Below, one piece after another: positions 8,535-60,812 of a stretch of DNA of 64,000 nucleotides. The number at the start of each line of letters is the position of its first letter. Positions within the stretch are counted from its first letter, which is position 1. The stretch is from Marsupella aquatica (Eukaryota; Plantae; Marchantiophyta). The stretch lies in assembly GCA_973895155.1 (NCBI GenBank), contig OZ316892.1, positions 15,492,861 through 15,556,860 of the forward strand, given 5' to 3'. A model generated the notes under the pieces. The model was not told the origin of the DNA, made no database searches, and saw only the letters and a program-made list of their open reading frames with translations. The translations under genes and the position numbers were made by a program.

Positions 8535-8552
8535 TCCCCGGCAGCGGCGCCA
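8535..8552 (-). other. Primer binding site, tRNA-Asp type
   Basis: Minus strand reads CGACA-TTT-TGGCGCCGCTGCCGGGGA, complementary (1 mismatch, from recall of the tRNA sequence) to the plant tRNA-Asp 3' end TCCCCGGCAACGGCGCCA. Confidence 0.85.
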
Positions 8553-8555
8553 AAA

Positions 8556-13226: not shown

Positions 13227-13499
13227 GCCTTTGGTTGCCCGAATGCCCTTGACGCCTGCCCGATTCCGTTACGCCACTATGAACACTGTGAGGGTGTAAT
13301 CACCCCTCTAATGGCGCATTGATTGGCATCGATATTGCCAATCGCGCCTTGACAAGAGCTGCCAAGCTGGACTCTGGCCTGGTAATGAGGGAGTTGTCCT
13401 GCAGCCGTAAAAAATGTTTAAGCACAATCTAGCAGTCCTCTTAAGAAAAGCAAAAGCTCTCATTCATCACTTCAAAACTTGCCAGCCCATCCCTGGTTC

Positions 13500-34977: not shown

Positions 34978-35558
34978 AAATAAAACCCTTTGCCAAAGAG
35001 TGTACTTTGCTGAAGAGTGTTCCTGTCCAGAGGATGCAACCCCAGCACGAGTGACAAATGTCAACAACAATCAGTACCGGACAGTCGTACAGACTGTTAC
35101 AAAGACCAGTTGAAGCCTAAAGAGGTACAGTCATGAATACAAAAGACGATGTTGAGTCCGAGGAAGGAATTACAGAAATCTCTTGGCAGAGATCACTAGT
35201 TGTACTTTTGGGAAAATGCAAAGAACAACTCTCACGGCCGGGAGTATGTAATCCATACAAAATAGGACAGGTGTCGGTCGTAGTTTGTACCGTTGACATT
35301 TTGGTACCCGTTGACTATTATCAACGAAATTCCAACGGTAAAATTGGAGACTATTGAAATTACTTTTTGGCTAGCGAGATCCCTGGCCTGAAATCCGTAG
35401 TCTATATCTACATAAAATCTAGGAAAATCTTTATAAATATATCCATAAAGCGTGTCATTATATGCTAGCGATCTTGCTAGCATGAGGACTTCGACGATAC
35501 AAGTAGTAAAAGACAAAACAATGATGACATCAACGGAAACTCTCTGACAATTTGGTCG

Positions 35559-38500
35559 ATGGGTTGTTTCCGTTGGGATGAAATGAGATTAAAGCTTCAT
35601 CATAAGGGTCATGTTGACGATCCTAAGCATAGTCATCTTCTTTTGTTGTCATCTAAAATTTTGTTTGGGATGATTGAGATGGCTTGCAAAGTCGTTTTGG
35701 AGCGTAGAATGATGAGAGATGTAGTTGTGCTTCCTAGCACACCAGGTTCATCGGAGGTGACAGTGATAGAGTCATTCCTTACAACTCGGTTTGGACTTCT
35801 AGATGGTGATATCATTTGCAAGTTGTTTGAGTTGTATTGTCAAAATGGAACACGTAGGACTCACGAGTTGAGAGAAGAGAGTAGTACTTCCAACAGGGTT
35901 TGGAAATTGAAGGTTGGATCTCATGTAGAGGTTGTGTCGAGTAAAGATGACATTCCTGAAATCATTCTGGACCATGTGGATTCTCCTCCTGAAGAAGAGA
36001 CTACTCGTGTGATCGATCTGGAAACGCCTACAAAAGAAATGGCCCCAGATATCATTGAAATATCTCTCGATAGTCTAAGGGAGGACACATCTTGTGGATC
36101 AGCCAAGTCAGGAGGTGTTTCGGAACCCGGAAGATTGGTCAAGAAAATGGATGTGCTTACCATGCCAATAGTGTATCGGATGAGTGCTTATGACGCTTTC
36201 CTCAATATAAGTGGCGCGAGTGAACTTGCATAATTTTGAAGAGGGAATCAGTGGAAGGAATGCCAGGTTCCTAGTCTGTCATCGACATACAATGGTAACG
36301 TTGTTTTTGAACTTCCTCCCATCGAAGGGTCCGAACGCGGAGGAGGTCTTCAAGATATGGATCGAGAGAACGACGGCTATCCGTGGACTCGACTTGTCAC
36401 TACATCTGCAAACCTGAAGCCAAGGTTCCATTGGTCTGTCTCGAAAGTCTGATGTGCTGGAATACTTGAATGCCAGAATTTGGGATGTCGGAAGTTCAAG
36501 CATACGAATGAGAAAAATGCTTGCTCGTTTAGAGGGAAAGGGTTACTGACTGACATCTTCCATCTTGGGGAGCACGTGAGTGAGGGTGGCATAGTCTTTG
36601 GATTTTGTGAAGAGCGACCGCTTTGTATTCAAAATTGTCCGGCAAAACTATTGTACGTGTACCATAAGCCAGGTTTGGAGAGTCACATTTCAATTCATAT
36701 GTCCAGGTTGGCTGTGCATATGGGATTCCATGACCATCCGATTTGGAAGGGGAAATCTCGTTCAGCGAGAAAGACTGCGGAAGATGTCATTTTAGGGGTC
36801 CATAGATTGAATCCAGTATCAACTTCAACACGTGTGAGATACCAATCCATTGGCAGCCTTGTCTCACTTTTGCATCCAGAATCATCATCTCAGTTGTCAA
36901 GAGAAGAACAGATGGAAATCTGGAGTTCCATAGGTGTGGTTTCCACTGCTCCCAAGTTCCAAGCTATACTCCGGAGTATCAAGATGGATAATCCCAAAAA
37001 AGGAGAACTTGATGCCCTTCGTGAAATGCAGTCAAGGAATATTTTCCTTTTGTGCAAAGGTACCTTTTTTCTGGTCAAGGGAATAAGAATGATCAAGCGC
37101 ATGTATTCAAAATGAGTACAAATGGACCTGGATCTGGTGTGGACATTTTGAGGAGCATGGAGTCTGGAGGAGTTTTGGAAGGTGCTTGGGTCAATTTTGA
37201 CGTGATGCATCGCATCACTACTAGATGGTTGACATTCAGTGCACATGTTTATGACCACAATTACCGGGCTCTGTGTACAATTTTTACTTGTGAGTTGAGA
37301 GCCGAAGACACCGAGTCCCTTGAAACTGCATGGCGATTGATGGTAGATGTGGCATCGGAGAATGGAGGATTCATAGCTGACAATGCAGAGGCTGGTTGGA
37401 TTGTTGTACGACGAGTTTTTTGGTGGTGTTCGAAATCCTATGAAAGAGCACAACGATGCTTTCCATTTTTCTCAGTCCCTAAGGAGACACACATTGGATG
37501 GCATCAAGGAGGGGTGTCATGCAGAGCATTATAAGATGTGGGAGAAGTTAAGGATTGCCCCAACTTACGTCGAAGCGTATAGAATTGCAAACGACATTCA
37601 AAATGGTGGAAAGAAGGGAATTGTCATCCTTCAAAGCTCAAATCCCTTCAAGGTTGGATTTCATGGTGGGTTGTGCGATGGAGACAATGGGGCAATTTTA
37701 TTTGAGTGGTAAGTTTTATCCATCATTTATGATCCATTTAAGCCAGCGAGATCGCTAGCCTAAATATCATTGTTTAACCCTGGCTAGTCTGTAACTAGTG
37801 TGCTTTCTGCTAGCGAGGTCGCTAGCCTAAATACATTGACTAACATTGATTCTGTGGCAAACACAAACTGCAAAAGAGTATGCCTTGATGCCAAACTGCG
37901 CGGGATCTAAATCTTCTCATGCTTCAATGCGATCCTGCCAACCAAAGAAGAGATTTGGTTTGATGGAAGCATGTGAAGTTGATCAAAATCGAGCAGTTGG
38001 ACAGATTGCCGCGTTCACTGCGTATATGGAAGGATGTCATCGTGGTAATGGTCCTACAATATTTGAGCTGGCCTATCGCAATGCAGATACTATGGGATCA
38101 TTGGATGCCTACGAGAAGGCATCCAATCTACTATTTGAATCCTCTGGAAAGTATGAGTTCTATAGAACAGAGCCTTTACATGGGGATATTCGGACAATGT
38201 CAGGAAAACGGAAGGGTAATGCTTCCGCGTCTATTCATGAGAATGATTCTCATCAACATGATAAAATATTGCGTATAGTGACATCTCCGTCAAGCTTGAA
38301 AAGAAGGAATCTGTACGCTGAATTCAGTAGTTTCAGAAGTGGTTCTGACCTTGGGGGACCGTCGTGTATTCCTGATAATGAAAACAGTCCCACTCGCAAG
38401 ACAGATGCTCTCCCTCGTGAAGTTACCAATATCTCAGATGATGGTGAAGAACAAAGCCTTGGAACAGATGTAGAAGGGACACTGATTACAAATGATGTTG

Positions 38501-39453
38501 GAGAAATACCATCTCCTCAAAATAGTCAGGATTGAATTCGGGATGCCCCCCGAAGGATCCCTTTTATTGAAGAGGTTGATATTTCGTACGGGACCTGGCA
38601 TTTAAGATGAAGTGGGAAAGGGAGTGGACCTGTGTGCAACGGACTAGTGGATCGGAGTGTCTTTGGTAGAGAAGAATGTCGTAATCTGATCAAGGAAACT
38701 GGATATAAAGCGTTACGGACTGGAGTTGTTGGTGTGGCCATTCACGGATTGAGGTTATCCTCCCCACATCGTCAGCTTCTATATTTCTGTCCAAATAATA
38801 AGTGCCATAAAACAGGTGGAAGAAGGACTCTTGCCCAGCTCCCGCAACCACCTGAGGCACTACAAGTCCAACGAGGAACTAGGCTGACCCTTGAAGAGAT
38901 TGATTTTCTCCTTCAAAATGGCTTTCAAATGATAGGGTTGTCATACTTTGATGCGACGCCAATCAGGTCATTCTCTCCTGCAAGTCGTCTTGACCTCCGA
39001 ATTGATGTGAACGCCTTCCCCGAAAGGGTTGACATTGCTTATTCAAATCGTCGATTGAAGACTCAGAATGGGAAAGGCGTTCGACAACATTTCCAGAACA
39101 CCCCTGAGCTTCTTAAATGCATTCGATCTGCAATTGTCGAACAGATGAGAGTCATTGGAAGTGACAAGATTTGCACAAGAAATGGATGGGGATGGCAATA
39201 TTTCATCGCTACTCACGAGAGTGACTCTAGAATTGCACACAACTACTGGGTTCAAGTGTGCTGCTTCCCTTGTTGCTCTTGTGATGACTTCTACAAGAGG
39301 CACACGCGAGGAAGACCCTACATGTCTTGTAAACATCTCCTCTGGGTGTACTTAAATAAGCTTTCGCTTAATCTAGAGAGAGACGATCTTGTGAAACAAC
39401 CAATTCTGACTGTTGGTGAACTGAGGAGTTTGATTCTGTTACACAGTAGTTGA
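35559..39453 (+). pseudogene. Mutator-like transposase with GCM/WRKY-like Zn domain, MULE DDE core and C-terminal SWIM finger; disrupted
   Basis: DGYPW..CAGILECQNLGC..CPAK..GFHDHP; NFDVMHR..GFIADNAEA..VF..DAFHFSQS; PCCSCDDF..SCKHLLWVY (CxCxnCxH). Intron donor GTAAGT at 37709. Confidence 0.75.
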
Positions 39454-40653
39454 GTCCATCACTTACATCCGTTAAGGTGGACGTTTAAGAGTACCTGTTT
39501 TTGTCGCATTCCAGGTTTCAAAACCTGAACAATGGACACTTTCCGAGTAATAAGAATGCTGATGGTATGTTAGCAAGGATCTTGTATATTAAGTGTGGGT
39601 CCTAAATGTTGCCTATTTTAACTAGCAATGTTGCTAACAATTAACAACACATATAAAGATGTAATTCGACCAAACTTCTGTGAAAGTTTAACATACACGG
39701 AGTGATTGCATGCCATCCACAACAAAAATCACTCAAGTACCGGTAGGCAATATTTACTAGCGATCTCGCTAGCAAGGTATGCACTCATGATATTGAAAAA
39801 ACTTTCAAAGCTTTATTCAGATATGCGTCCAATCTTTATCAAAACATCTGTAACTGACAAAATGTCCGTGTCCTACCGATCATTTCATTGAAAGGTCACG
39901 GACTTGACAGAGACTAACTGTAAAACTACGGGGGTTTGCAATGCGGAGTGATTGTCTAGGGTACTATTCATGGAGATGTTGCCTTGTAGGCGTCTAAACC
40001 TGTGTCCGAATCCGTATCATAATTGGACAAAGCTAGGATGTCGGATGTCCAGTAGTTGTGTATGTCGATGTCCCTCTAGTAAGACTCCTCCTCCTCTCTC
40101 TTCAGCTTCTCTGAAACTCCCTTAGAAATGGATACGTTTGTGCGAGAAGACATTGGTGCTCTAGAAACAACGCTTGAAGTTGTTTCCTTCGACGGTGCAG
40201 GTCGTTGAGTTGAAGCACAGACAACAGGCGGGACCCGACTGGATGATGATCCAGTCTTGAGCGGAGGGGGTATACTCTTCCTTGCCGGAGGAGAGCTTGG
40301 TGGCGAGTCCACTGGGCCATCAGTTTTGGCGTTGTAGCGGCGGACCTCCAGAACCCATTTGGCTTTTGGAGCGGAAGAGTCATCGTTCTTTGCCATTTCT
40401 GTCTGTAACAAACGCTACTGTGTATCAGATTACTTTCTCAACATGTGTTTACCAAATAGAAACAGTCACCTTCAAAACATCCAAGCTCATCGAGTCAAAA
40501 CGTGCAAAACTACGAGAAGGAAAATAGAACTGGGAAAACCAAACTTTCTCATTAACAATAACGCTACTTGCTGTGAAGAGGTCTCCCGGTGTCAAACTTA
40601 CATCTCCTTGTGCGACAAAAACTTTGCGAGAATGCGACACTCTCAAGAATACC

Positions 40654-43600
40654 TGTGACGCCGCCGGTACGACAAGTAATGAGCAATTTGGTCTAAACCG
40701 TGCCTAGCATGCGCGTTAGGGGTATCTTAGGCCGCTATGATTAGCATAACGACAGTACTTAGGTAGCCATTATGAGTAGGAAATCATTAGTCAATAAGGG
40801 GAATTCATGTTCGGGCTGGCGGCGCGTCGCCATTCGCACGTCCGGGTTACGAGCGTGGAGGGGCCCCTCCCTCGGGTCCATATAACAAACTTTGGGAGGC
40901 GTCCACTGACACGTGGTGACTCAGACCGGCGGAGTGGCCGGTACACTACAAGCGTGAACGGTTCAGCCTATAGGCAGTGAGGAGATGTTGGGGGATCGGC
41001 AAGCCCTCAAGGTATAAAAAGGGAGCCGACCCTTTGGAGTGCACCAGTCCATCAGTCCACGCGCCAGCTTCGACTCCAGCTCTCTCGTTCGCTCTAAGTC
41101 GCCACTACTATCTACTCTGAATGTCGCACACGATCCTCTCCAGCTCGGCCATTCGATTCTGGACGCAGTTCCTATCTACCGGAAGGCACTTGGCCGACTC
41201 ATTGAAACACGCCAACCCGCGCCGATACGAAATCGAACGCGAGTATGAGAGAGCCATCCGCCTAGCAGGACGACACCACTACATCCTTAACTTTGACTAC
41301 CCATCTCAGAGCGAGCTTTACCGACCAGCAGAGGTATCTGGGTACTTCTTCAACGGAGACAAATATATTGGTTTCTGGGAAGCATTGCTTCGGCTTCCGG
41401 ATGAGGTCTTCAATATCCCGGGTACGATCGACTTGCAACGACATCACTTTGACCACATCCCTGCTCAGGTTCGGGCTATCATCAACAGCGAGTCCAGCCC
41501 TACCCGTTCGACAAGGTCGTTCGCACTTGCTTCGGAGAACTTCTACCAGCACCTGTAGAGCTTCATGGAAACTAGACCCGCAACCACCAGCGCCAGCCCA
41601 GTGGACCCCATACCCGTACCCGTACCAACGCAGACTCAGGCTCAGGGTCAGCTTCAGTCTCAGCCTCAGCCTAGCCAACCCCCACCGCCAATCGCCCCAC
41701 CAGCAGTACAAGTACGCTCCGTCATCAACGCTGTGGACCTTAGCGATGATGACGAGGCTACCCCACCCTTGCTCAGGCGGCCCAGAGGAGTAAACACTCA
41801 GGGGGCCGACACTACATCGTCCCCTCCCCATGCTCGGACCCAAGGAGCGGCTCCAGCAGACAACACGGTGACCGTGGCCGCCCCGGGACCAATACTAACG
41901 GCGGTAGCACTACCTATGCCCGATCAAGAGGATGGGGAGGTGTCACCTTCCCCGAGCCAGTCACGGGGGAAGAAGAGGAAGGAACCCACCACTGCATCCG
42001 GGTTACCATTGGCCATGGTAGCCGTGGCCAAGGTAACAATGCACCGCATGGGGGAAAACGTGCATAAGAACATCCTCCATCCCAAGCATGCGGTGTACCT
42101 GAATACTCAGGGATTCGAGCACCTCGCCGCTCTGCCCTAGAACACTTGCAGGTACTACGGGGAGGACATGACAGAATTCGTCAAGAATTATGATGACACA
42201 CGTCAGCATACTCGGCTGCGGGGAAGGAATATGTCCCTCACGGAAGAACGGCTCAAGATGATCTTCGGATTACCCGAAGGTGACCATCGAGTCGAATCAT
42301 GGGCTCCCGGGGGCAAGGGAGCCAAGTACCAATCCTTGAGTTTTCCCTCTGAAGGAGCAGTGGACAACGGGTTCGTGATGAGGACCTGCCTCATCCCCGA
42401 GATAGCTGAGCGACTGGAGTTCCAGAGGTACGCCCTCCACATGATGGAACCCCGGGGGGAGATCTCCGCCGCCCAGGTTATCCAGGTCGAGAACTCTCGA
42501 CCTAGGAAGTGGGCATCGTACTTCGCTAAGAAATTCCATGAAGAGATGGAGCGGCGAAGGAAGATGCTGTACATTGGCAGGAAGGCGTATTTCGCTAGCC
42601 ACATCGAGATCATTCTTGAGTGGTACGCTCGGTTTGATCAACGAACCCTTCCCCGTGTCAATGTTACAAAGCTGGTCCCAGCTAGGTGGGTTTTCCCGGC
42701 CTTGGAGAGACGGCCCCAACCCGAGGCCCGAAGTCCAGCGGACACGCCAGCTTCACCCACCCCACCTCCACAAGTAGTTGTAGTCATAACCGAGGAGGTA
42801 CCGGATGGGTCGGTTATCGCAACCGTTGATGTGATCCAACAGGCCGAGCTAAGTACAGAAGTCGGTACGGCGGAGGTCTTACTCGAGCCCGGGTCTCCCA
42901 AAGACCCACCGGTGGCTATTTTGGAGAACCGGACATTGCTGCAGGAGGACACTCCAGCCCCTTCCAACATTACGTCCCCAAGGCTGGATGTCACTCCCCC
43001 AGCCCCCGCGCGTGTTGACGTCTGCCCGTGCCCAACTCCGGACAGGCACAACCTGGACCACCCGAAACTCTTCGTACCGGATACATTTCTGAACGGGCTT
43101 CTGGGAGATTTCTCTCATCAAATTGCCCGGGATACCGGGGAGTTCATGGCCCGGAAGGTAGTCTGTTTCTTCAATTAGGAGTTAGTTGCCGCAGTAAAGG
43201 CAGGTCAGGCCCAGTCAGAGGCCCTTCAGAGGATAGAGCGGTACCGGGTGGAGTCCGTATACTTAAAGAACGAAGTTGCGGCTCAAGAGGCTGAGCTTCT
43301 GCAACTACGACCCAAAGTTGCAACTGCTGATGATTTGTTAGCAAAGGCGCACGCCCTTACCGCCCTAGCCGAGTAGGCCAAAGCTGGGAACGAGGCCGAG
43401 ATTGCACGACTCCGGAACCAGATTGACAGTTTGAAGAATCAAACTGTCATCTGGCAGAAGGACCTGGAGGAGGCCAAAGAACGGGCCCAGCGGGACACTG
43501 CGGAGATAGCCACGCTACAGGCTGAAGTGGCACGGCTCCAAACTGAAGCCAAGAAGCAGGACCAGCTGGCGGGCAAGCTGACGAGCGACGCCCAGCAGCT

Positions 43601-44555
43601 AGAGGAGGCATGCCAGGAGGCCGCGGAGGAGACAGACGCGGCGAAGCGAGAGAACGAATCTTTGCTGGACCAGGTCCAGCTCCTCAAGGCAGACAACGAC
43701 AGACTTCGTAAGCAGCGGGATGGCCGCTCCCACTCGGGCAGCTCTGGCAAGCGTACCAGGCATTAGCGGCGGAGTAGAAATAGAATAGGGTTAGGAGTAG
43801 CTAGGTCAGGCTATTGGGATAGGCACCTGCCTTAGTTACAGCAGTACTGCCATGCTGTCCAGCCTACGTAGATTAGGATCTTCTAATAAGACACAACCGT
43901 TTTTCGGCTTGACAGTCAGATTAGTTAGGACCTAAGTCAGCGAATCTTTGGGTGGGAGGACACTCCGTTCCCCGGCCCTTAGTATTTAGTGCACCCCTCG
44001 GTAGAGGCAGGGGGGGTTTTTAGTCTCAGAGTTGGACATCCGTGATATGTGCGGGGAGTCCCGACCTCTAGGAGTGAAAGAGTACCAAGGGGAGGAGGTA
44101 GGACTAAGCTCGTCGGGCGAGTGCGGAGCCGGGCTCCGTTGTAGTATACTCTCTCGGCCTTGAACCTGTTCATTCCGGAGCTATCGAGTCAACCAAGTGT
44201 ACGCACATGTCCCCTATGTAGTAAAATCCTTTCCCATTATTTCCTTCATGTAAATCGAGATTGTATGCTCGTGCGCGTGTATGTGTGTATGAATCTCGTG
44301 TATAGGTGACAACGCCGGGCTGAACGCACTACCCGAGTCGTGCACGGGGTGCAGCTTGCGGGGATGTGGTTGCAAGCACGGGTTGAGGACCTGTATCATA
44401 GAATCCGGATCGAAGGCGGACAACACGAAGGCTTAGAAGTCCTTAAGCCGAGGTCGATCCTGTTATCGACTAAGGTACATTCCGGCAGCGGAACACAAAC
44501 CATACCTAGGAGATGTCCGTATCTAACAGTAGGCGCACTTAGCGGCGGCGTCACA
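40654..44555 (+). repeat. Left arm (position of the 3' LTR), bounded by a perfect 12-bp inverted repeat TGTGACGCCGCC..GGCGGCGTCACA
   Basis: Read directly from the sequence; TATAAAA at 41013-41019 points inward. Confidence 0.9.
41121..43766 (+). pseudogene. 882-codon arm-encoded ORF (Pro/Gln linker, plant-transposon extra-ORF-like domain, C-terminal coiled coil); 4 in-frame TAG stops
   Basis: ORFs at 41121, 41565, 42168 and 43431 share one frame, with stops at 41556, 42138, 43176 and 43374. EFVKNYD..LRGRNMSLTEERLKMIFGLP resembles the EFY.N..VRG..I.F....I...LGLP motif of plant retrotransposon accessory ORFs. Confidence 0.8.
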
Positions 44556-47500
44556 TAGCTCCCTGCTTAATTGTGAAGCGTCCTCGCGAACATCACTCTC
44601 GGCGTCATCGTCGTCTTGATGGTGGTACTTCCTTACACGATCGTAACTAACTCGCGTGGGGAGTAAATCGCCGGCGTACGTCGCAAGCTCCAACGATCCG
44701 TTAGGGTAGATCTGATTGACTAGGAAGGGCCCTAACCAACGGGTATGAAGCTTCCCTAGAAACTGCATGTACCTATTGTCGTACAGAAGGACTAGATCGC
44801 CTGTCACGACGTCGACCTTTCGTAGTCCTTTGTCATGCTATTTCTTGGAAGTTGTCTGCTTCATTACGGCGTGTCGAGCTGCTAGTAGCCGTGCCTCTTC
44901 CAAGGTTTCAATTTGATAAGCTCGGTCTGACGAACTTTCAGATTCAAGTAAGCGATCCCGAATGCTGACCCGTGGAGTGTGTACTTCAAACTCAACGGGC
45001 ACCAACGAATGTTGGCCGAACACGAGAAAGTACGGGCTATGACTCGTATTAGTTTTGTAAGCTAGATTATACGAGTACACCGCTGCGTACAACTTATCAT
45101 CCCAATCCGTTTTGTGCACAACTATAGTTTTGTTGAGGATCTTCCCAATGATACCATTTGCTCTCTCTGCCATCCTGTTGGCTTTAGGATGATACAGGGT
45201 AGTCTTGCGGTGCTTGACTAGGTAACGCTCCGTAAGTTGGGCTACAGTGTCATTGAGGAAGTGTGTTCCACGGTCGCTTACCAACTCTAAGGGTGGTCCA
45301 AACCGGGTGAAAATCTGTTCATATAAGAACCTGGCGCTGGTTGCGGCATCGTCCTTCATCGTAGCCCGTGCTTTGACCCACTTGGTGGAGTAATCAATAG
45401 CTAGCAGGATGTACTTGCATCTTCGTCTTCGGGTAACAGGAGTAAATGGCCCGATATAATCAATACCCCACTTTTCGAATGGTGCTAATGGAAGTACGGA
45501 CGTGAGAGGGTGATGATGAGCTCGTCTCGGGGCCCCAGCCCGCTGACACAGGTCACAGCCCTTGATGAAGCGTTGTACATCCCGATGCAACGTAGGCCAC
45601 CAATATCCGGAGTCCAGAATCTTTTCGGTTGTTGTGATAGCCGCGAAATGGCCTCCAGCTTCTTCTTCATGCAAGGCCCGCATCACGATAAGCGTCTCCA
45701 GCCTTATACTCCAAGCAGCGTCGTAACTTCCCATTAACTCCTTCCTTATGTAGGTGACCCTGTACCATGACGTAAGGCCCGGCTTTCCGTAGAAACACAA
45801 CGGTGGCTTCCTGATTAATGCCGTCAGGGATGCGGTCTGTCAAGAGGAAGGTGATTATTGAGCCGTACCACGTTGGCGTCCCCGCCCCTACGTGGAACAA
45901 CTCCTCATCCGGAAAAATATCATCAATTGGCTGATCGACTGGTACGCCGTCCAGCCTTGAAAAGAAGTCGGCATTGAGGTGTGCCTTTCCGGGCCGAACC
46001 CGAACTTTGTAGTTAAATTCCTGGAGAAGTAGCACCCACCGGGCTATCCGTCCCGTCCGCTTTGTTGACCATGTACTTAAGGCTATCATGATCCGTGTGG
46101 AATATGACCTTGTAGCCTAGCAGATAGTGTTGGAACTTTTTACACGAGTAGATTATTCCCAGAGCTTCTCGATCAGTGGGGGAATAATTCTTTTCGGCTG
46201 TGAATAATTGACGGCTAGCGAAGTAGATGGGGTGGTCGCGTCCGTTCTCATCAAGCTGACTGAGCACGGATCCAATACAGAACCCTAACACATCGACATA
46301 CACGTGGAACTCCTTATTCCAGTCCGGAGTGACCATGATAGGTGCGGTGGTGAGTCTTTTACGGAGTTCTTCGAAAGCAATCCGTCTCCTGGGTGTCTCC
46401 TTGATCACCGCGTCCTTTTTCATCATCTCAGTCAAGGGCAACGCTATTTTAGCAAAGTCTTTAATAAACCGACGGTAATACCCTACACAGCCCAAGAAGG
46501 ATCGTACCGCTTTTTGATCTATGGGAAACACCACCGCCATCCAGGCCGCGACCTTCTCTTGGTCCACCTCGATACCCCGTTTGGACATACGATGCCCGAG
46601 TAATACTCCCTCCTCTACCCCGAAAAAACATTTAGCGGGATGTAGTTTGAGTTTAACCTCTCGGCATCGTTGGAACGTACATCTTAGGTGTTCGGGGTGC
46701 ATGGCGACAGTTCCAAAGATGGCAAAGTCGTCGATAAATATCTCCAGAAATTCCCGTAGGAAATCATGGAAGATATTATCATGAGTCGCTGAAACATGGC
46801 CGGAGCGTTACACAATCCGAACGGCATTCTCCGAAATGCGAAAGTCCCCCATTCCGTAGTGAACGTTGTTTTGAGCTGATCCGAGAGGCGAATCCAGATT
46901 TGGTTATAACCCGAATACCCGTCAAGAAATGTATAAATTTCATTTCGGGCTACCATATCTAGAACCATATCCGTGAATGGTAACGGGTAATGGTCTTTTC
47001 GGGTCGCATTCAGCTTACGGTAGTCCTGACAAATCCGGATCTTAGGTTTTCTGTCCGTTCCTCCCTTTTTTGGTACAATGACGATGGGAGAGACCCAGTC
47101 GCTGGCCATTACCGGGTAGATGATATCTGCGGCGAGGAGACGATCAATTTCCTCCTTCACTAAGATGGAGTACCTTGGGTTCATGCGACGTTGTCGCTGC
47201 CGTACTGCATGGGCCCCCAGATTCAAATCGATCATGTGTTCTCCTAACTCGGGGGAGACTCCTGTTAAATCGTGATGGCTCCATGCAAACACATCTTCAT
47301 ATTCCTTGAGCAGAGCTTGGATAGATTTTTCCGCCTCCCTTGTCAGAGCGTGGCCTAGGTTAAACGATTTATCCATCCCAATGGTGTACTTCCGGTAGTG
47401 CTCCTTCCTGATGACTTCAACCTGGTTCCGCAAGCTTGGGTCTAGGCTCACATCAAGTTCAGCTAACCAAAATCCTCCGTACATGGGTGGAACCAGGATT

Positions 47501-50017
47501 GGTCTCGGGATTGGAGTTACTTCCTCCAACTGCGGGATGGACGGATCCCAGGAGACTCGTTTCTTATGTCTTGGTCTCGGGGTTTCAGCCCCGGCCGGTT
47601 GTTTGGCTGGTTCATGGTCATGAGGCTCTGCACTGGTAGAAGCAACATCGGCTTCCTGCTTAGCTGGAGCCGGGTCCTCCGTATCGATGAGTTGTTTTTG
47701 CGTTTCCTCATCCCGGGCAGTAGAGGTGCTTGGGGTGGGCTCAATAGCAGCCTTCGGGTAATTCAGGAGATGTGTTTCGCGGGTTGCCTCAATTCCGAAG
47801 ACATCTTCCTTGGACAGGGACGAGATGAGTTCAATCATGTTGAGTTCCTCTTCCTCCAAGGTCTCCAAATCATATTCCTTGGGTCCCTGTGGGGTTTCGC
47901 CCTGATAATCATCCATTGCCCATGATACCCGTATTGTGGGTGTCCCGAACCGTAGCTCCTTCTTTCCCCAATCCGTGACCACACGGCCACCGTACAGCCA
48001 CGGCCTGCCTAGGAGGACCGGATAAGAGGAGGGCCGAACCGGCCTCATGACTAGGAAGTTGAGATAGAACTCCACCCCTCCTACCAGAGTGAGTACCCGT
48101 GTAAGCGTGCCCAATGGAAGTACCCTTGCCCCGTTTGCTAATCTGATAGCTCGGGCTGTGGGTTGATACGTGAGGTATCCTAACTTGATTGACGTTTCTT
48201 CCGTCATGATGTTGACTCCCGCTCCTCCGTCTACGAGAACCATCCTGATGGTACAATTATTAATTTCAATCGAGATGTCCGGCGCTCCCAGGTCCTCGCA
48301 TATCATGTTGCGCCACGTCCACCAGATTCACCCACTCGGTGTTGTCATCTTGCCATTCCACCGCAATCATTTGGATGACCGCATCACTCGTGGCCGATCC
48401 GCCCTGGGCTGGTCTTGCTGCATTTGTTCGAGCGGCCATTACCAATGGACAGTTGGCCGTGGAATGAGCTTCCGTTTTGCAGACTTGACAAAGTGGCGTG
48501 CCACGGCCATCCCCCTGGCGTCTTGGTTCTGTGCATTCCCTCGCAAAATGGCCTGGCTTCTCACAGTTGTAACAAACCGGGGATCACCAAATCCCTGGTT
48601 TAGGAGGAATGCTAGGGTTACTGATAACTTGGAAGCCTTGGCCATTGTTTGGGTAGGGGTATGCAGTTCTACCTGCTAAGTTACGCGGACCCACCATTGA
48701 AATCTGATACACCGAATCAGGAGGGTCTTCAAAGAAATACTCCGTGGACTCCGCTTCAGGTCCCGGGTTGTCGACATCATCTAAGTCCACCTGGTGAACT
48801 CGGTTCTTCCATCTTGGGCATTCTTGCACGACATGCCCGGATTGGAAGCACGTTGAACACCACGCATGGGCTTGAATCTCAGATGGTTTCTTCTTCTCCA
48901 CCGGCTTTTCTGCGAGATGTACTGATAGTGCTTTGAGGCGATCCGTGATTTTGTTAAGCTTATCTGCTTCGGCAGCCTTTGGATCGGGTATTGCTCTGCG
49001 AGTACGAGATTTGATTTTCCCCTCCTTCTTAACCCGCCTTTTCTTCTTCTTGCTCCGACTCTCACTCTCCGAATCACTTCCTGATGAGCTGGAGGTGGAG
49101 GACCCACTGTTCGAAGTTGAATCCGAACTAGATTCAGTCTCCGAACTGGACGAGGTCGAACGATGTTTCTTCTTCTTCTTGCGTTTCTTCTTCTTCTCGT
49201 CGTCTGATTCGGAGTCATTGTCACTGAAGATCTCGTACTTGCCCTTCTTGCGGCGTGCCCGCTGGCTTCGCCGGGAGTTATAGGTGGACTCCCGGTAGGT
49301 TTTGGCGCACGCTATGGCTGCTTGCATTGAAATTGGATTATTCTGGCGCACCCAGAATTGCATATTCGTGGGCAAACCATGGAGGAACCATGTAAGCTGG
49401 AGTGCGTCACCAGGCCTGGGCCGTATTTTGGCAGCAAGTTTCTGAAACTTCTGAATGAACTTTTGTAGGGACTCCTTTTTTCCCATGCGAAGCTGGCCGA
49501 TCTTTAATAGAGAGCGCTGCTTGGATCCAATAGCATGAATTTCTTGCAACAACGCAGCTTGGAATTGTGCCCATGTAGTCCCGGGTGGCAACGAGTTGTA
49601 CCATGGACGAGCTTCTCCCCGCATCACTCCGGGGAGGATGGTTAACTTAATGGCGTCTTCCCCGTTAGCCTTAGCAGTGGCTTCAAACTCATCCAACCAT
49701 TCATCCGGGTCATCCCCATGACGCCCTTTGAAAGGTCGATAATGAAACCACGATCGTTGCGATATTTGTGGAGGAGCTTGGGCAGCGCGGGCCATCGGTG
49801 GGGCGGCTACCATAGGTGGTGGCGGTGGTGGCGGTGGTGGCACAGGAACCGCAGTAGGACCGGTCAAACCGGACCCCGAAGGTCCCGGTGGTATGTTCAT
49901 TCGTCGGGGAGATTGTGAGTCCTCCGAGCCCGAAGAATCGGAGCTTGTTGTGGTTGCACCTTCTCGTTCGCTGGTCAATCTCCTCAAGTAAGCTGCTTGA
50001 GAACGAGTGACGGGCAT
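44523..50017 (-). pseudogene. gag-pol (GAG-PR-RT-RH-INT order, no chromodomain seen) with frameshifts and stops
   Basis: WCSTCFQSGHVVQEC, VDGGAGVN, WVSPIVIVPKK, FLDGYSGYNQI, MPFGLCNAP, YFASRQ, HEEEAGGH..CDLC, WGIDYIG/SDRGTHF/AERAN, WLGPF. Confidence 0.95.
44556..44570 (-). other. Polypurine-tract-like sequence
   Basis: Minus strand AAGCAGGGAGCTA directly precedes TGTGACG at 44555, just after the integrase GPF region. Confidence 0.55.
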
Positions 50018-50110
50018 TTACTCGTGTAAATGCGATGGTTAGTACTAGGGCCTGGTGTATTCTGCCCAGGCGAATACACACATGTCTCCCCTCTACGATA
50101 TGTAGAGTGC

Positions 50111-50128
50111 CCCTTCCATCTAGCGCCA
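50111..50128 (-). other. Primer binding site, tRNA-Asn type
   Basis: Minus TGGCGCTAGATGGAAGGG, about 2 mismatches to the recalled plant tRNA-Asn 3' end CCCCTCCTTCTAGCGCCA; ~95 nt upstream of the gag ATG. Confidence 0.75.
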
Positions 50129-50141
50129 AAAACAAAGGCTA

Positions 50142-53100
50142 TGTCACGTCATCAGCCTTGGCCTAAACTCAGGCTTCAACTTTAAACGGGCACCTCCTTC
50201 GTAAATATGAGGGTTCGGGCAGGGAGGGAAGCGCGTAATGCACCTAATTCACGTAAACTAGTGCTAAGTGCGCCTACTGTTAGATACGGACATCTCCTAG
50301 GTATGGTTTGTGTTCCGCCGCCAGAACGTACCTTAGTCGATAATAGGATCAACCTCGGCTTAAGGACTTCTAAGCCTTCGTGTTGTCCGCCTTCGATCCG
50401 GATTCTATGATACAGGTCCTCAACCCGTGCTCGCAACCACATCCCCACAAGCTGCACCCCGTGCACGACTCGGGTAGTGCATTCGGCCCGACGTTGTCAC
50501 CTATACACGAGATTCACACACACATACACGCGCACGAGCATACAATCTCAATTTACATGAAGGAAATAATGGGAAAGGATTTTACTACATAGGGGACATG
50601 TGCGTACACTTGGTTGACCTGATAGCTCCGGAATGAACAGGTTCAAGGCCGAGAGAGTATACTACAACGGAGCCCGGGTCCGCACTCGCCCGACGAGCTT
50701 AGTCCTACCCCCTCCCTTGGTACTCTTTCACTCCCAGAGGTCGGGACTCCCTGCACATACCACGGATGTCCAACTCTGAGACTAAAAACCCCCCTGCCTC
50801 TACCGAGGGGTGCACTAAATACTAAGGGCCGGGGAACGGAGTGTCCTCCCACCCAAAGATTCGCTGACTTAGGTCCTAACTAATCTGACTGTCAGGCCAA
50901 AAAACGGCTGTGTCTTATTAGAAGATCCTAATCTACGCAGGCTGGACAGCATGGCAGTACTGCTGTAACTAAGGCAGGTGCCTGTCCCAATAGCCTGACC
51001 TAGCTACTCTTAACCCTATTCTATTCCTACTCCGCCGCTAATGCCTGATACGCTTGCCAGAGCCGCCCGAGTGGGAGCGGCCATCCCGCTGCTTACGAAG
51101 TCTATCGTTGTCTGCCTTGAGGAGCTGGACCTGGTCCAGCAAAGATTCGTTCTCTTGCTTCGCCGCGTCTGTCTCCTCCTGGCATGCCTCCTCCAGTTGC
51201 TGGGCGTCGCTCGTCAGCTTGCCCGCCAGCTGGTCCTACTTCTCGGCTTCAATTTGGAGCCGTGCCACTTCGGCCTGTAGCGTGGCTATCTCCGCAGTGT
51301 CCCGTTGGGCCCGTTCTTCGGCCTCCTCCAGGTCCTTCTGCCAGATGACAGTTTGATTCTTCAAACTGTCAATCTGGTTCTGGAGTCGTGCAATCTCGGC
51401 CTCGTTCCCAGCTTTGGCCTGCTTGGCTAGGGCGGTAAGGGCGTGCGCCTTTGCTAACAAATCATCGGCGGCTGCAACTTTGGGTCGTAGTTGCAGAAGC
51501 TCAGCCTCTTGAGCCGCAACTTCGTTCTTTAAGTATACGGACTCCACCCGGTACCGCTCTATCCTCTGAAGGGCCTCTGACTGGGCCTGACCTGCCTTTA
51601 CTGCGGCAACTAACTCTTGATTGAAGAAATAGGCTACCTTCCGGGCCCAACGGGAAGCCCGTTCAAAAATGTACCCGGTATGAAGAGTTCCGGGTGGTCC
51701 AGGTTGTGCCTGTCCAGAGTTGGGCACGGGCAGACGTCAACACGCGCGGGGGCCAGGGCAGTGACATCCAGCCCTGGGGACGTAATGTTGGAAGGGGTTG
51801 GAGTGTCCTCCTGCAGCAATGTCCGGTTCTCCGAAATAGCCACCGGTGCTTTGGGAGACCCGGGCTCGGGTAAGACCTCCGCCGTACCAACTTCTGTACT
51901 TAGCCCGGCCTGTTGGGTTGCATCAACGGTTGCGATAACCGACCCATCCGGTACCTCCTCGGTTACGACTACAGCTACTTGTGGAGGTGGGGTGGGTGAA
52001 GCTGGCGTGTCTGCTGGACTTCGGGCCTCGGGTTGGGGCCGTCTCTCCAAGGCCGGGAAAACCCACCTAGCTAGGACCAGCTTTGTAATGTTGACACGGG
52101 GAAGGGTTCGTCGATCAAACCGAGTGTACCACTCAAGAATGATCTCGATGTGGCTAGCAAAATACGCCTTCCCGCCAATGTACAGCGTCTTCCTTCGCCG
52201 CTCCATCTCTTCATGGAATTTCTTAGCGAAGTACGACGCCCACTTCCTAGGTCGATAGTTCTCGACCTGGATAACCTGGGCGGCGGAGATCTCCCCCCGG
52301 GGTTCCATCATTTGTAGGGCGTACCTCTAGAACTCCAGTCGCTCAGCTATCTCGGGGATGAGGCAGGTCCTCATCACGAACCCGTTGTCCACTGCTCCTT
52401 CTGAGGGAAAACTCGAGGATTGGTACTTGGCTCCCTTGCCCCCGGGAGCCCGTGATTTGACTCGATGGTCACCTTCGGGTAATCCGAAGATCATCTTGAG
52501 CCGTTCTTCCGTGAGGGACATATTCCTTCCCCGCAGCCGAGTATGCTGACGTGTGTCATCATAATTCTTGACGAATTCTGTCATGTTCTCCCCATAGTAC
52601 CTGCAAGTGTTCCAGGGCAGAGCGGCGAGGTGCTCGAATCCCTGAGTCTTCAGGTACACCGCATGCTTGGGATGGAGGATGTTCTTATGCACGTTTTCCC
52701 CCATGCGGTGCATTGTTACCTTGGCCATGGCTACCGTGGCCAATGGTAACCCGGATGCAGTGGTGGTTCCTTCCTCTTCTTCCCCCGTGACTGGCTTGGG
52801 GAAGGTGACACCTCCCCATCCTCTCGATCGGGCATAGGTAGTGCTACCGCCGTTAGTATTGGTCCCGGGGCGGCCACGGTCACCGTGTTGTCTGCTGGAG
52901 CCGCTCCTTGGGTCCGAGCATGGGGAGGGGACGATGTAGTGTTAGCCCCCTAAGTGTTTAGTCCTCTGGGCCGCCTGAGCAAGGGTGGGGTAGCCTCGTC
53001 GTCGTTGCTAAGGTCCACAACATTGATGACGGAGCATACTTGTACTGCTGGCAGGGCGATCGGCGGTGGGGGTTGGCTAGGCTGAGGCTGAGACTGAAGC

Positions 53101-54097
53101 TGACCCTGAGCCTGAGTCTGCGTTGGTACGGGTACGGGTATGGGGTCCACTGGGCTGGCGCTGGTGGTTGCGGGTCTAGTTCCCATGAAGCTCTGCAGGT
53201 GCTGGTAGAAGTTCTTCGAAGCAAGTGCGGATGACCTTGTCGAACGGGTAGTGCTGGACTCGCTGTTGATGATAGCCCGAACCTAAGCAGGGATGTGGTC
53301 AAAGTGATGTCGTTGCAAGTCGATCGTACCCGGGATATTGAAGACCTCGTCCGGAAGCCGAAGCAATGCTTCCCAGAAACCGATATATTTGTCTCCGTTG
53401 AAGAAGTACCCAGATACCTCTGCTGGTCGGTAAAGCTCACTCTAAGATGGGTAGTCAAAGTTAAGGATGTAGTGGTGTCGTCCTGCTAGGCGGATGGCTC
53501 TGTCGTACTCGCGTTCGATTTCGTATCGGCGCGGGTTGGCGTGTTTCAATGAGTCGGCCAAGTGCCTTCCGGTAGATAGGAACTGCGTCCAGAATTGAAT
53601 GGCCAAGCTGGAGAGGATCGTGTGCGACATTCAGAGAAGATAGTAGTGGCGACTTAGAGCAAACGAGAGAGCTGGGGTCGAAGCTGGCGCGTGGACTGAT
53701 GGACTGGTGCACTCCAAAGGGTCGGCTCCCTTTTTATACCTTGAGGGCTTGTCGATCCCCCAACATCTCCTCGCTGCCTATAGGCTGAACCGTTCACGCT
53801 TGTAGTGTACCGGCCACTCCGCCGGTCTGAGTCACCGCGTGTCAGTGGACGCCTCCCGAAGTTCGTTATACGGACCCGAGGGAGGGGCCCCTCCACGCTC
53901 GTAACCCGGGCATGCGAATGGCGACGCGCTGCCAGCCCGAATATGAATTCCCCTTATTGACTAATGATTTCCTACTCATAATGGCTACCTAAATACTGTC
54001 GCTATGCTAATCATAGCGGCCTAAGATACCCCTTACGCGCGTGCTAGGCATGGTTTAGACCGAATTGCTCATTACTCGCCGTACCGGCAGCGTCACA
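50142..54097 (-). repeat. Right arm (position of the 5' LTR); homologous to the left arm over 50263-54097, with ~120 bp of unique inner sequence ending GACGTGACA
   Basis: Reverse complement of 40654-44543; TATAAAA on the minus strand at 53738-53732. Confidence 0.88.
51038..53630 (-). pseudogene. Second copy of the arm-encoded ORF, with different stops and small deletions
   Basis: Same peptide as 41121-43766; TAG stops at 53442, 53283, 52950 and 52327, where the left copy has CAG. Confidence 0.8.
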
Positions 54098-54789
54098 ATA
54101 CCAAATCCCCTCCTCGCCCGCGGATATGACAACACAAACTCAATTGAAGTTACTCTGCGATGCGAAGACGATCGCGAAAGAGTGAGGAGATGATGAAAGT
54201 CAAATAATGAGAACACTGTTAGGAATGGAGATGAGTTGAGAGGTCCGAATGACATATAGTGCATTTTGGGAGCCTCAGATCTTTTGAAACGGTTTTGCGT
54301 TTCACGCTTCACTCATGAGGAAGGGGACATTGGATTTTGTCATGATATGATCTGGTGTAGTGCTGTTGCTGCAACCGTTAACACCCGTGCTTTCTAATGA
54401 GTGCTTTTTGTGTGGGTCATGACCGCACAAAGTATTTCGTGCAAGAATGATGGGCAGAGTTATGGCTAGCAACTTTGCTGGCTTGATGTACATTGGAATT
54501 ATATATTGAATTATGGTGCCATCGACGACCGTTTGTATCTGGGGAATACGTAATATGTACCAATCCATCGTCGGGATCGCTTTTTAAACCTAACGGGAGT
54601 TAAATAAATAGGTGGAATAGAAGGTTCCTTTTAGGCTAGCAAGAGTCACTTTATGCTAGCGAGGTTGTTTTTGTGCCAAATTTTGGGTATTCCAAGGAGA
54701 AAATGATCCCATGCGAGGAATTTTTGTACTATTTCCTCGCAAGCTACAATGACCCTCAAGAGCATAACTTAATCAACAAACAATATGTG

Positions 54790-55060
54790 AAAACTATTAT
54801 TGATTCTTATGACTTTGTTTTGGCAGAGTACCTTATCGCCCAGACAAAGCATAAAACTGTTATCGACACTTCTTTCTTTGTTGAATATGTGAAGATTGTT
54901 TTGTCAGAGTACCTTACCGCCCAGACAGAGCGGAAAAACTATTAAGAGTTGCTTCTTTCTTTGTTGAATATGTGAAGATTGTTTTGTCAGAGTACCTTAT
55001 CGCCCAGACTGAGCGTAAAACTTGTTACAAATATTTTTCCCCCGTTGAATATGTAACAAT
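54790..55060 (+). repeat. Short degenerate tandem repeat (TTGTTGAATATGTGAAGATTGTTTTGTCAGAGTACCTTA.CGCCCAGAC)
   Basis: 2-3 copies visible at ~54815, ~54878 and ~54961. Confidence 0.8.
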
Positions 55061-55169
55061 CCTTCTTGACAACATACCCTTGTGAGCGTGAAAACTGTTA
55101 TTGACTATTCTTTATCCAATGACTAAGTTTATTGGACCAACATCCAAGAACCTTTGACAGCAAGTTTAG

Positions 55170-56060
55170 GGTGCTCTCTGAGATGCCATCTTGCGGAGGT
55201 ATGAAGCCTAGAGCCATGTTAGAGAGGCTCTCCAAGATTAGATCTTGCACCAAATCTCACCAAGGACCATGTTAGAGAGGCTCTCCAAGATGCCATCTTG
55301 CGAAGGTATGAAGCCTCAAGCCCTCTCTGACATGGTCCTTGGTGAGATCCGGTGCAAGATGGCATCTCTCGACCTGACATATCACCATCTCTTGACCTGA
55401 CATGTCATCTCGGAGAGCCTCTCCGACTTAAGTCCCGACCTTACATGTCATCTCAGAGAGCCTCTCTAACATGGATCTTGCCCTGATATGTCGTCTCGGA
55501 GAGCCTCTCTGACATGGGTCCTCACCTGACATGTCATCTCAAAGACGCTCTCTGACATGAGTCTCGCCATGACATGTCATCTTGGAGAGCCTCTCTAACA
55601 TGGGTCCTCACCTGACATGTCATGTCAGAGACACTCTTTGATAGGTCTCGTCATTACATGTCATCTCGGAGAGTCTCTCTGACATGGGTCCTCACCTGAC
55701 ATGTCATCTCGGAGACGCTCTCTGACATGGGTCTCGCCATGACATGTCATCTTGGAGAGCCTCTCTGACATGGTTCCTGACCTGACATGTCATCTTGGAG
55801 ACCCTCTCCAACTTAAGTCCCAACCTTACATGTCATCCTGGAGAGCCTCTCTGACATGGGTCTCGCCCTGACATGTCATCTCGAAGAGCCTCTCCAACTT
55901 AAGTCCCGACCTTACATGTCATCTTGGAGAGCCTCTCTAACATGGGTTGCGCCCTGATATGTCATCTCGGAGAGCCTCTCTGACATGGGTCCTCACTTGA
56001 CATGTCATCTCGGAGACAATCAGGAACATGTCCCAACTTGAGACTGGCCTCACATGTCAT
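55170..56060. repeat. ~43-bp minisatellite (GACATGTCATCTCGGAGAGCCTCTCTGACATGGGTCCTCACCT) with an orientation switch near 55300
   Basis: More than 12 degenerate units; units at 55214 and 55268 are in the reverse orientation. Confidence 0.9.
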
Positions 56061-58051: not shown

Positions 58052-59172
58052 TCACCGACACTGAGGACACAACCATGATCCACTAGGAATCACCTGCAAT
58101 GGTGGTGTCAAACATGACATGTGCCATCCTCTAGAACACTTATCACAAATCAACATAGTAGTTGCTCCCTGAGCAGATCCACACAACATATATTTCAAGC
58201 CAGCACGAACATGTGCCAAGCTTGGATCTATTGTACCATCAATGTTGGGAAGGTGACATGGTGCACAGTTGCGCACATGATCCTTCCAAACCATACCATC
58301 GCGTTCCTCCAACATCAGGACACCAGAAGGCAACACTTCACGCACACGTAAGATTGTCCGGCCTGTGGTCACATCAAGTATTGTGGGTGCTGTCTGCTGC
58401 AAATAAACATAATCACCAGGATGAAATCGTCGAATGCTTGCACGGTAACCTCCTCCACGAATAGTGGCATACCTCAAAGTATCACGATGTTGGGCAATGG
58501 CAAGGTTGTCAAAAGCCATGGGCATCACTCTCTGAAATACCCGTGCTCTCTCTAAACACACCTTGATCCAAACATCAGGATCATCCAAGTTCACAACTGG
58601 TGCAACATCATGACGAATAGCTGCTGGCAAATCTGGCTCTCTACCATAGAGCAAAAAGTAAGGTGAGAAGGATGCAAGTGATGCTTGCCGACTGAAACGG
58701 TAGCCCATAGCTAACCAAGGTAGCTGGAGATCCCAATCTCCCAGATGACCAACCTGCAAGCCATACTTAGCAATTCTCTCTTCACAGTTTGCACAACTCT
58801 CTCAGCTAATCCATCTGCCTCAGGATGATCACGAGAGGTAGTACGATGATCAATCAAAACTTGTTCACACAAACTCTCAAACTCTCCACGGAACTCAGTT
58901 CCCTGATCAGTCAACACCTCAGCTGGTGCTCCAAAATGACTGAGTACGCGATCCAAAAATGTAGCAGCAACTCCTCCACTGGCTTTATCTGGCAATGCCA
59001 CTAGCTCAATCCACTTGGAGAAGTGCTCCACCATGACCAAAACATACTGATTATGGCGTTGGGTAAGAGGTAATGGATCAGCAAAATCCAAACTCCAACG
59101 ATATCCCAAACCCATGATCGGTAACGGGTGCAACTGGGGAGTGGGAGCATTAAATGATGCTCTCACTCTATC
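58052..59172 (-). pseudogene. Ty3/Gypsy integrase with a C-terminal PHD finger; frameshifted and 5'-truncated by a CACTA insertion
   Basis: WSLDFA, EHFSKW, TDQGTEF, DGLAER, SPYFLLYGR; then (Y)MLC..MLICDKCSRGWHMSCLTPPL..IPSGSWLCPQC (C4HC3 with the first Cys changed to Tyr). Confidence 0.92.
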
Positions 59173-60469
59173 CACTAGAAGAAAACGTCCCCTTTTGAGA
59201 CCCTATGCTTTGTGACTTTAGGGAGACTTTCAAAAATACATGACTCCAAGTTTAGGGGAGTCATTGTTGTTACATTTTATCAACTGATTTTTGGGGGATA
59301 TTTGTGAAAGTCATTCCTACAACTTCTGATAAAGTAGCAATTGTAACACTAGTAGGGCAGTCATATGTAAGTTGAATAAGCTACTCTCCATTACGGCATT
59401 CTGAAATAGAGTGCAAGAAGGATTACATGCACTCTAGACATCACGGAATGTTCCATTTACAACCCTTGACTTGCAACTTGCGGAGTCGGGAGCACTAGGT
59501 GCACATAGAAGGAATGGGGGTTTAGGGTTGCAAAACTAGTTAAATGTCTTCATGTCAAGAGCATTGTAGCTAGTTATCCTAGCTAGCCTAATTAAACGTG
59601 CATGGGAGTACTTGCCTCTATAATAGTAAGTATGCTGCTCAATGGATTCCTTAGAGTTCATGGGCAACTTTGACAAGAATATTGGGGTGATATCATTTTC
59701 AATTCAGGGCTAAAGTAGTGTTTGGCCCCCATTCTTTGTCCACCCTCCCTAAGTGGCATGTGTAAGGGTTAATTTACAGTTGCGTTCTAAGAGGTTACAG
59801 TTGCGTTCATTTAATCTTTGCTCACAAAGTGTCGTGTCCAATTTGCTTTAGGGTACTAACATGTGTATCAACGGCTCATGTCAACGCAAAGTGGTCGAGG
59901 CTCATTGGGTTTGGTTCACTAAGTGTCACTAAGTGTTAAGGTATGCTTTGTGCGTGAGTGTGCCTTTGGACACGAGTTTAGGGTGCGCGGGTTTTGTTTA
60001 GGGTTTAAACACGCCAGCAGAGTGCAAAGTTCAGTTCAATGTGCGTGGGAACTCGGAGGGTTTTGTTTCAAAAAAACTCACTTGTCCATTACGGGGACAT
60101 TCGTCGTGCCTGAAGGTCGTCACATTGTGCGCGGTCTCACAAAGTGGGGAGTGTGCTTCGCGATCGGGGCAATTCCTTCGCGTAGGGGAGTTTTGCGCTT
60201 GGAGCTTGAAGGTTTACCTTCAAAGCTCTAGAGCATTCAAGCTGAGAGGGCGACCGGCTTGCGGAGTGGAGAGGTGAGCTGCAGTGGACGACGAGCTCTA
60301 GGACTGGGAGGAGCTGTGGGCGGGCAGGAGCTACAATTTGGGAGCTGCTCTGGCCGCCGGTCTGGCCGAGGAGCTACGAGCGGAGAGCAGCTGGAGTGGA
60401 GCTCGAGCGGAGTGGAGCTGGAGTGGAGTGCTTCTGTCACACACTGCTGAGGATTGCTACGTAGCTTCA

Positions 60470-60812
60470 GTTTGGGCGGCGGTGCGAGCAGAGGTGCTAA
60501 GAGCGGCTCAGGTGCCAAAGGAGGTGGTGCGAGCGGAGGTGCGAGCGGAGGTGCTGAGAGCGGCTCAGGTGCCAAAGGAGGTGGTGCAAGCGGAGGTGCG
60601 AGCGGAGGTGCTGAGAGCGGCTCAGGTGCCAAAGGAGGTGCTGAGAGCGGAGGTGCGAGCGGAGGTGCTGAGAGTGGCTCAGGTGCCAAAGGAGGTGCTG
60701 AGAGCGGAGGTGCGAGCGGAGGTGCTGAGAGCGGCTCAGGTGCCAAAGGAGGTGCTGAGAGCGGAGGTGCGAGCGGATGTGCTAAGAGCGGAGGTGGTAA
60801 GAGAGGTGCTAT
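60470..60812. repeat. GC-rich tandem repeat with 57-60-bp units built from GGAGGTGC/GAGCGG
   Basis: About 5.5 units; reads APPLAPEPLS on minus and GGASGGAESGSGAK or VLRAEVRAE on plus. Confidence 0.9.

Follow-up and report, generated by a model that had tools for sequence, protein, structure and literature searches.

A Ty3/Gypsy copy with a flipped and shortened 3' long terminal repeat in Marsupella aquatica, probably a product of aberrant reverse transcription

The window analysed here is a stretch of 64,000 nucleotides from Marsupella aquatica (Marchantiophyta; assembly GCA_973895155.1, contig OZ316892.1, positions 15,492,861 to 15,556,860), and it contains a Ty3/Gypsy retroelement whose long terminal repeats (LTRs) are inverted. 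All positions are those of the window. Self-BLAST of the window gave one long inverted repeat, 40654-44543 against 54097-50263, with 94.9% identity over 3,890 columns, 144 mismatches and 8 gap openings. Both outer ends start with the identical TGTGACGC, and each is adjoined by ATACC (40649-40653 and 54098-54102, plus strand), a target-site duplication (TSD) whose five letters would match by chance about once in 1,000. These results bear out a preliminary description of this DNA, which had claimed inverted arms of ~3.9 kb, matching outer ends and a clean 5-bp TSD. The coding region (44523-50017, minus strand) contains gag, a zinc knuckle, protease, reverse transcriptase (RT), RNase H and integrase in Gypsy order by Pfam, the protease match being under its curated cut-off (E 5e-4). 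The same description called this gag-pol complete, with a primer-binding site (PBS) and a polypurine tract (PPT). The domains are in order and both priming sites are present, but the polyprotein is in 7 pieces, with 2 in-frame stops (one of them perhaps natural) and 4 changes of frame. A Pfam scan of the 14 open reading frames (ORFs) of the element gave no chromodomain, tyrosine recombinase or second RNase H.

Read along its minus strand, the element consists of 5' LTR nt 1-3956, a spacer, the PBS, gag-pol, the PPT, LTR nt 1-13, and the reversed LTR from nt ~3835 to nt 1. The 5' LTR is complete and in normal orientation (50142-54097, minus, 3,956 bp by arm comparison). Its last 121 nt (50142-50262, minus) are U5-like and end in GTGACA, and in this copy they are found on the 5' side alone. 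A 13-nt spacer (50129-50141, minus), which resembles an 11-nt spacer in the relative L005, separates the LTR from the PBS (50111-50128, minus), which begins TGGCGCTAG and has its start, TGGCGCTAGA, at 50128. This PBS is putatively of the tRNA-Asn type. At the other side of gag-pol, the PPT (44556-44568, minus) adjoins the LTR start; the same tract stands ahead of the outer-end sequence in organism C, and a similar tract followed by TGT is present in the related loci L005 and L009. The first 13 nt of a normal 3' LTR follow (44543-44555, minus), identical to the left outer end, and the inversion junction lies at 44543/44544. Beyond it is the inverted 3' arm (40654-44543, plus), which contains LTR nt 1 to ~3835 reversed relative to gag-pol, lacks the final 121 LTR nt, and has its U3 tip at the left integrated end. 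Thus the arms are not whole repeats with the bounds first given to them, since the 5' LTR extends 121 nt beyond its arm, to 50142, and 13 nt of an additional LTR start (44555-44543) stand on the 3' side. A PBS after the 5' LTR, a PPT before the 3' LTR, TG...CA ends and a TSD are all present, but the two LTRs of this copy are not in direct orientation. No palindromic R-like segment able to serve as a direct repeat was found within the arms. A short, imperfect inverted repeat (TGT.ACG) is common to both ends of the LTR. Each arm also has a copy of an extra ORF, at 41121-43766 (plus) in the left arm and ~53630-51038 (minus) in the right arm.

Public sequencing runs of organisms A and B from two studies (X2, X3 and X4) contained both the empty and the filled site. 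In all three runs, contigs going past 40653 continued into the right flank of the window with a single ATACC, and the end of the X4 contig agreed with that flank in 29 of 30 letters when compared by eye. The filled left junction was bridged with 0 other letters at depths of 198.6, 17.7 and 37.1 in X2, X3 and X4, respectively. The TSD and the empty site support the earlier claim of a single event in which two equivalent ends were joined by a DDE integrase. The insertion target (40400-40653, 54098-54200) is itself a multi-copy repeat, with a flank depth of ~6-9 times the single-locus depth.

Over 3,835 columns, 131 transitions and 14 transversions separate the arms (Kimura two-parameter distance 0.039), with 13 mismatches in the first 200 arm columns. 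The transitions are evenly split, 68 being assigned to the left arm and 63 to the right, and 108 of the 131 are in CG or CHG context. The pattern is the decay of two once-identical copies and not a mirror artefact of the assembly, which had already been judged unlikely and which these methylation-type changes on both sides argue against. All four stops in the left-arm ORF are open in the right arm, and all five in the right-arm ORF, which also has indels of its own, are open in the left arm. Furthermore, 5 of the 15 listed sites at which the left arm departs from the family are common to both arms. With their symmetric decay, mutually open stops and shared family-deviant sites, the arms look like products of one template. 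Of 90 changed codons, 25 are synonymous, against 37% expected (p = 0.06), which suggests that no selection has acted since insertion; both pol and the LTR gene of this copy appear to have decayed neutrally.

Four public runs were mapped on 40400-50262, and 15 of the 111 joints found were listed. The deepest listed joint in all four runs was 44544<->50261 on opposite strands (depth 1000, 4570, 4451 and 6220). We rejected a family-wide inversion as its explanation, since it is the ordinary continuity of the LTR into its last 121 nt. In run X5 from organism C, four contigs ran from the PPT directly into the outer-end sequence in direct orientation, and their loose consensus agreed by eye with the PPT side of the window at 23 of 30 letters overall, including all of the last 14. 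Since these contigs pass the PPT straight into the outer end, the family LTR appears to span the outer end, the arm and the 121-nt segment, or 3,956 bp (54097-50142). In organism A, a joint 40696<->44543 was found in X1 and X3, with one contig each (depth 181 and 47.5). Family contigs part from the left arm at 40696, and the 13-mer has 44543 as its first base, so that the coordinates probably reflect the clipping of a direct PPT-LTR contig. The depth of the arm-U5 joint relative to the median internal depth was 2.4 in X3 and 2.7 in X4, as direct LTRs predict. The outer ends met varied flanks in X2-X4 (6-7 contigs each, agreement 0.46-0.49), consistent with the U3 tips of many insertions.

Related loci point in the same direction. 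Homologues of the extra ORF lie downstream of pol and in sense with it in L012, L005, L004 and L006, so the antisense 3' arm of our copy is the flipped one and the 5' LTR is normal. Long inverted arms around pol were found in none of 80 related loci, and direct repeats were found there in about 8. One of the 80 loci, L070, has an inverted LTR piece upstream of gag (2-295 against 4858-4613, 82% alike) that is cut by the contig start, and it may be a nested copy or another inverted product. Soft depth ratios in X3 and X4 put the family at about 60-100 equivalents of the internal region and 170-250 of the LTR. In organism B the depth at 44632 was 135,873 (X2), compared with a median of ~20,600 at internal sites. 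The segments 44555-44640 and 49941-50262 may belong to an abundant non-autonomous derivative that retains the PPT and PBS sides.

We propose that one integrated copy of a non-chromovirus Ty3/Gypsy element is present here, its 5' LTR complete and its 3' LTR flipped and shortened, and that it probably arose as a one-off aberrant cDNA through a template-switch error of reverse transcription in a family with direct LTRs. A rare aberrant cDNA was among the options of the preliminary description and is the best fit of them. Its headline options, namely an undescribed architecture with non-canonical replication or composite-transposon-like mobility, lost support through the direct PPT-LTR junction in organism C and probably in organism A. 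The event most likely preceded integration, because the 3' side holds LTR nt 1-13 twice, is without the last 121 nt and has its TSD next to a U3 tip, none of which a simple later inversion yields; an inversion after insertion, offered earlier as well, is set aside on the same duplication and deletion.

In the proposed mechanism, a plus strand primed at the PPT would have copied the LTR and halted 121 nt short of its end, at nt ~3835. The stalled 3' end would then have been re-primed at LTR nt 12-13 by 1-2 nt of microhomology, with either its own 5' end or a second RNA as template, and would have been extended back via the PPT and gag-pol to serve as a minus strand. The microhomology at the switch site is 1 nt in the studied copy and becomes 2 nt with the letter that the joint coordinate 44544 implies for the family. 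A second, complete plus strong-stop DNA may have been transferred at the PBS to give the normal 5' LTR. The product would have had a PPT-defined U3 tip at each end, and integrase would have inserted it with a 5-bp duplication. Since the copy has no direct R repeat, by the standard LTR replication scheme its first strand transfer would not be completed, and it is likely a dead end that would not retrotranspose again; the arms would then have decayed by methylation-type transitions.

Several results weigh against this origin. Neither the inversion junction at 44543/44544, in reads or contigs, nor the right host junction, in contigs, was seen in the public runs. Another reading of the joint 40696<->44543 is a second inverted event whose LTR start is longer. 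Of the 111 joints, the 15 listed include no high-depth direct one for organisms A and B, though such contigs would be short. The depth ratio of the arm-U5 joint was 0.22 in X2, which is inconsistent with X3 and X4 and makes the depth argument weak. The 80 related loci are distant, with integrase identities of 64% or less, and most are too short to include both ends. From the PPT-LTR junctions it is likely that the family normally carries direct 3.96-kb LTRs, but no full-length second copy was seen. At the switch site, extended complementarity was not above background (rank 127-2279 of ~3,850 positions), and the mechanism does not account for the halt at nt 3835.

Four other explanations were weighed. 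It is unlikely that two separate cDNAs each supplied a U3 end to one integrase complex, after which the free inner ends were trimmed and host microhomology repair joined them. That two separate donor ends can be joined in concert is known from in-vitro retroviral work, and such an event would account for the two U3 tips, the clean TSD, the near-identical arms and the 1-2 nt of microhomology at the junction. However, it leaves unexplained why the break lies 13 nt from the PPT, where the plus strand starts, and the family-deviant sites shared by both arms would require two cDNAs with the same rare allele set. We think it quite improbable that a direct-LTR copy was inserted first and that repair synthesis or gene conversion later put an inverted copy in place of its 3' LTR. 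The short inverted repeat shared by the LTR ends speaks for such a replacement, and the copying could have homogenised the arms. However, the outer end is of pure U3 type from base 4 and exactly adjoins the TSD, and given the duplication of nt 1-13 and the 121-nt loss, at least two switches would be needed, one of them at most 3 nt from the end.

Very improbable is a propagating subfamily in organisms A and B, derived from a direct-LTR ancestor, in which the inverted layout replicates by panhandle repair or through a 13-nt jump that leads from the PPT to the outer end, or is mobile as a composite transposon driven by its integrase. The outer end is perfectly repeated by the 13 nt that follow the PPT, the direct junction has low depth in organism A and is not among the joints listed in organism B, and the family is abundant. 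If this explanation were true, a Gypsy element with a DDE integrase would replicate with two U3 tips, without direct LTRs, and with 13 nt as a short direct repeat. However, these 13 nt are simply the normal LTR start and a direct form exists; moreover, the deep 44544<->50261 joint is ordinary LTR continuity, pol and the LTR gene of the studied copy appear to decay neutrally, and there is no internal complementary region past 12-13 nt. An assembly error that joined parts of different copies is the least probable of all: the target is a multi-copy repeat and no read or contig seen spans the inversion junction or the right host junction, but methylation-type differences lie in both arms, the two flanks meet at a single ATACC in the empty site, three runs of two studies have contigs across the left junction with its arm-private letters, and the 13-nt junction is not something an assembler would invent.

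The extra ORF in the left arm (41121-43766, plus) has 881 codons with 4 in-frame stops private to this arm, and consists of a folded domain (~42141-42650) and a coiled-coil-like tail. A TATA-like box at LTR nt 360 (41013-41018, plus; mirror at ~53738) lies upstream of it as a putative promoter. The ORF has 26 distant homologues. A profile of its domain had 4 matches among the 1,018 ORFs of the 80 loci (E 2e-9 to 0.003), and hhalign against the L005 homologue gave 93.4%. The extra ORF of L076 was tried as a further homologue and is unrelated. For the LTR gene, there was no Pfam family above cut-off, no match in Foldseek (PDB and viral libraries) and none in a PDB sequence search. The predicted fold of the domain has a mean pLDDT (predicted local distance difference test score) of 79.6, and its best structural match is VANC21 (Z 5.8, root-mean-square deviation 3.8, 168 aligned residues, next match 3.7), which is under the confidence level of the tool. 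Atlas leads of 0.86-0.87 pointed to Transposase_32 and Athila ORF1 clusters. VANC and MAIN, proteins of the plant-mobile-domain (PMD) kind, are linked in PMC13547354. The leads of the LTR gene to a PMD or VANC-type protein are weak, and an anti-silencing or DNA-binding role is at this stage a tentative lead.

The LTR gene is homologous to the sense 3' extra ORFs of relatives, and may be compared with the additional ORFs of plant LTR elements treated in the review PMC7264820; here the gene is inside the LTR. The phrases 'within the LTR', 'in the LTR' and 'inside the LTR' are absent from the main text of that review. In L005, the PPT most like ours appears to come after the extra ORF, whereas in the studied copy it comes before the ORF, and this suggests that the LTR grew by taking in the extra gene. 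A purine-rich run at 43766-43810, ending AGCTA just past the stop of the LTR gene, may, speculatively, be the relic of a second PPT.

The integrase is 69% identical to its closest protein, P0002, 50-61% identical to most environmental matches and up to 54% identical to Riccia proteins. A quick, unfinished integrase tree grouped it with environmental and Riccia sequences in a clade of 53 of the 83 rows (SH-aLRT 99), apart from the angiosperm matches, which suggests a bryophyte-like host. Relatives were not found in viral contig or genome contig collections. Ginger-type DNA transposons have an integrase without RT or RNase H. They share with our copy a Gypsy-type integrase, inverted ends starting with TG, and a short TSD, but the RT and RNase H exclude a Ginger-type element; gag, protease, PBS and PPT are also present, and the inverted ends are LTR copies. 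A DIRS element is ruled out by the rve integrase and the protease, by the absence of a recombinase among the 14 element ORFs, and by the absence of an internal complementary region: inside 44544-50262, exact matches to the outer 60 nt of either end reach at most 12 nt, at the LTR start, and are otherwise of 8 nt. As described in PMC7192593 and PMC3950715, DIRS-1 likewise has inverted terminal repeats around RT and RNase H, and in either element both repeats could drive convergent transcripts; DIRS-1, in contrast, has a tyrosine recombinase, needs an internal complementary region and has no protease, whereas the studied copy has a DDE integrase, protease, PBS, PPT and TSD.

The element has a 5-bp TSD and neither an additional RNase H (aRH) nor a chromodomain, as is the case in Athila (OTA). 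According to PMC6317226, Athila has a PBS of the tRNA-Asp, Asn or Ala type and LTRs of up to ~5 kb; judged from the sequence, the TSD, the lack of an extra pol domain, the size and the PBS type would fit the Athila row of that paper. Our copy shares with OTA/Athila elements, as outlined there, the GAG-PR-RT-RH-INT order, the 5-bp TSD, a size of ~13.4 kb, a TGGCGC-type PBS, an extra ORF and LTRs of several kb, but its 3' LTR is flipped and shortened, and its extra ORF is inside the LTR and not between pol and the PPT. Phygy and Selgy, for which the same paper gives a 4-bp TSD (NCGN for Phygy), short elements and no extra ORF, are ruled out by the 5-bp ATACC and the 881-codon ORF. The nearest published Gypsy with odd repeats in the literature we searched is KnitGypsy-Dnmt3 of Klebsormidium nitens, which according to PMC5890265 combines the Gypsy domain set with non-standard, DIRS-like repeats in a streptophyte. 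There the odd repeats are described as the structure of the family, whereas here they are shown for one copy of a family with a direct junction, and our element has no methyltransferase domain. In the same literature, in which subscription journals were thinly covered, there was no report of an inverted-LTR layout in integrase-type elements, nor of an ORF within an LTR. Mu killer of maize, as presented in PMC8224964, is also a rearranged copy, and both could give a long hairpin transcript against their own family, in our case of at most ~3.5 kb if transcription starts near LTR nt 360. Mu killer is derived from a DNA transposon and its silencing has been shown, whereas the hairpin of the studied copy is predicted from sequence.

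Elsewhere in the window, a second related Gypsy lies at ~3940-8800 (minus; 58% amino-acid identity in RT and RNase H) with a PPT-like site at 3942, and no paired LTR was found for it between 1-4100 and 8600-20000. Broken ORFs at 35481-39450 end in a CxC-CxH, SWIM-finger-like motif and are probably, by eye, a decayed Mutator-like element; two pieces of it had no Pfam match. An integrase remnant of another Gypsy lineage (58055-59202, minus) has, by eye, a PHD-like cysteine motif at its end. A 196-codon ORF at 12053-12640 (minus) may resemble an RPA1-type OB-fold C-terminal region. Self-BLAST also showed tandem repeat arrays at 54815-56037, 26408-27107 and 60476-60810, one of them with internal inverted segments.

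In the studied copy we probably see a rare scar rather than a new mode of movement. If inverted copies with the same junction were many, the rule of direct LTRs for integrase-type retroelements would fall. As a scar, the copy is a legible record of an error of reverse transcription, with both breakpoints readable to 1-2 nt, and points to the acceptance of two U3 ends in vivo by a plant Gypsy integrase. Copies of this kind would escape LTR finders that need direct repeats. Moreover, an accessory gene of 881 codons is kept by the family within its 3.96-kb LTR, and the studied copy could be a long-hairpin source of small RNAs against this abundant family.

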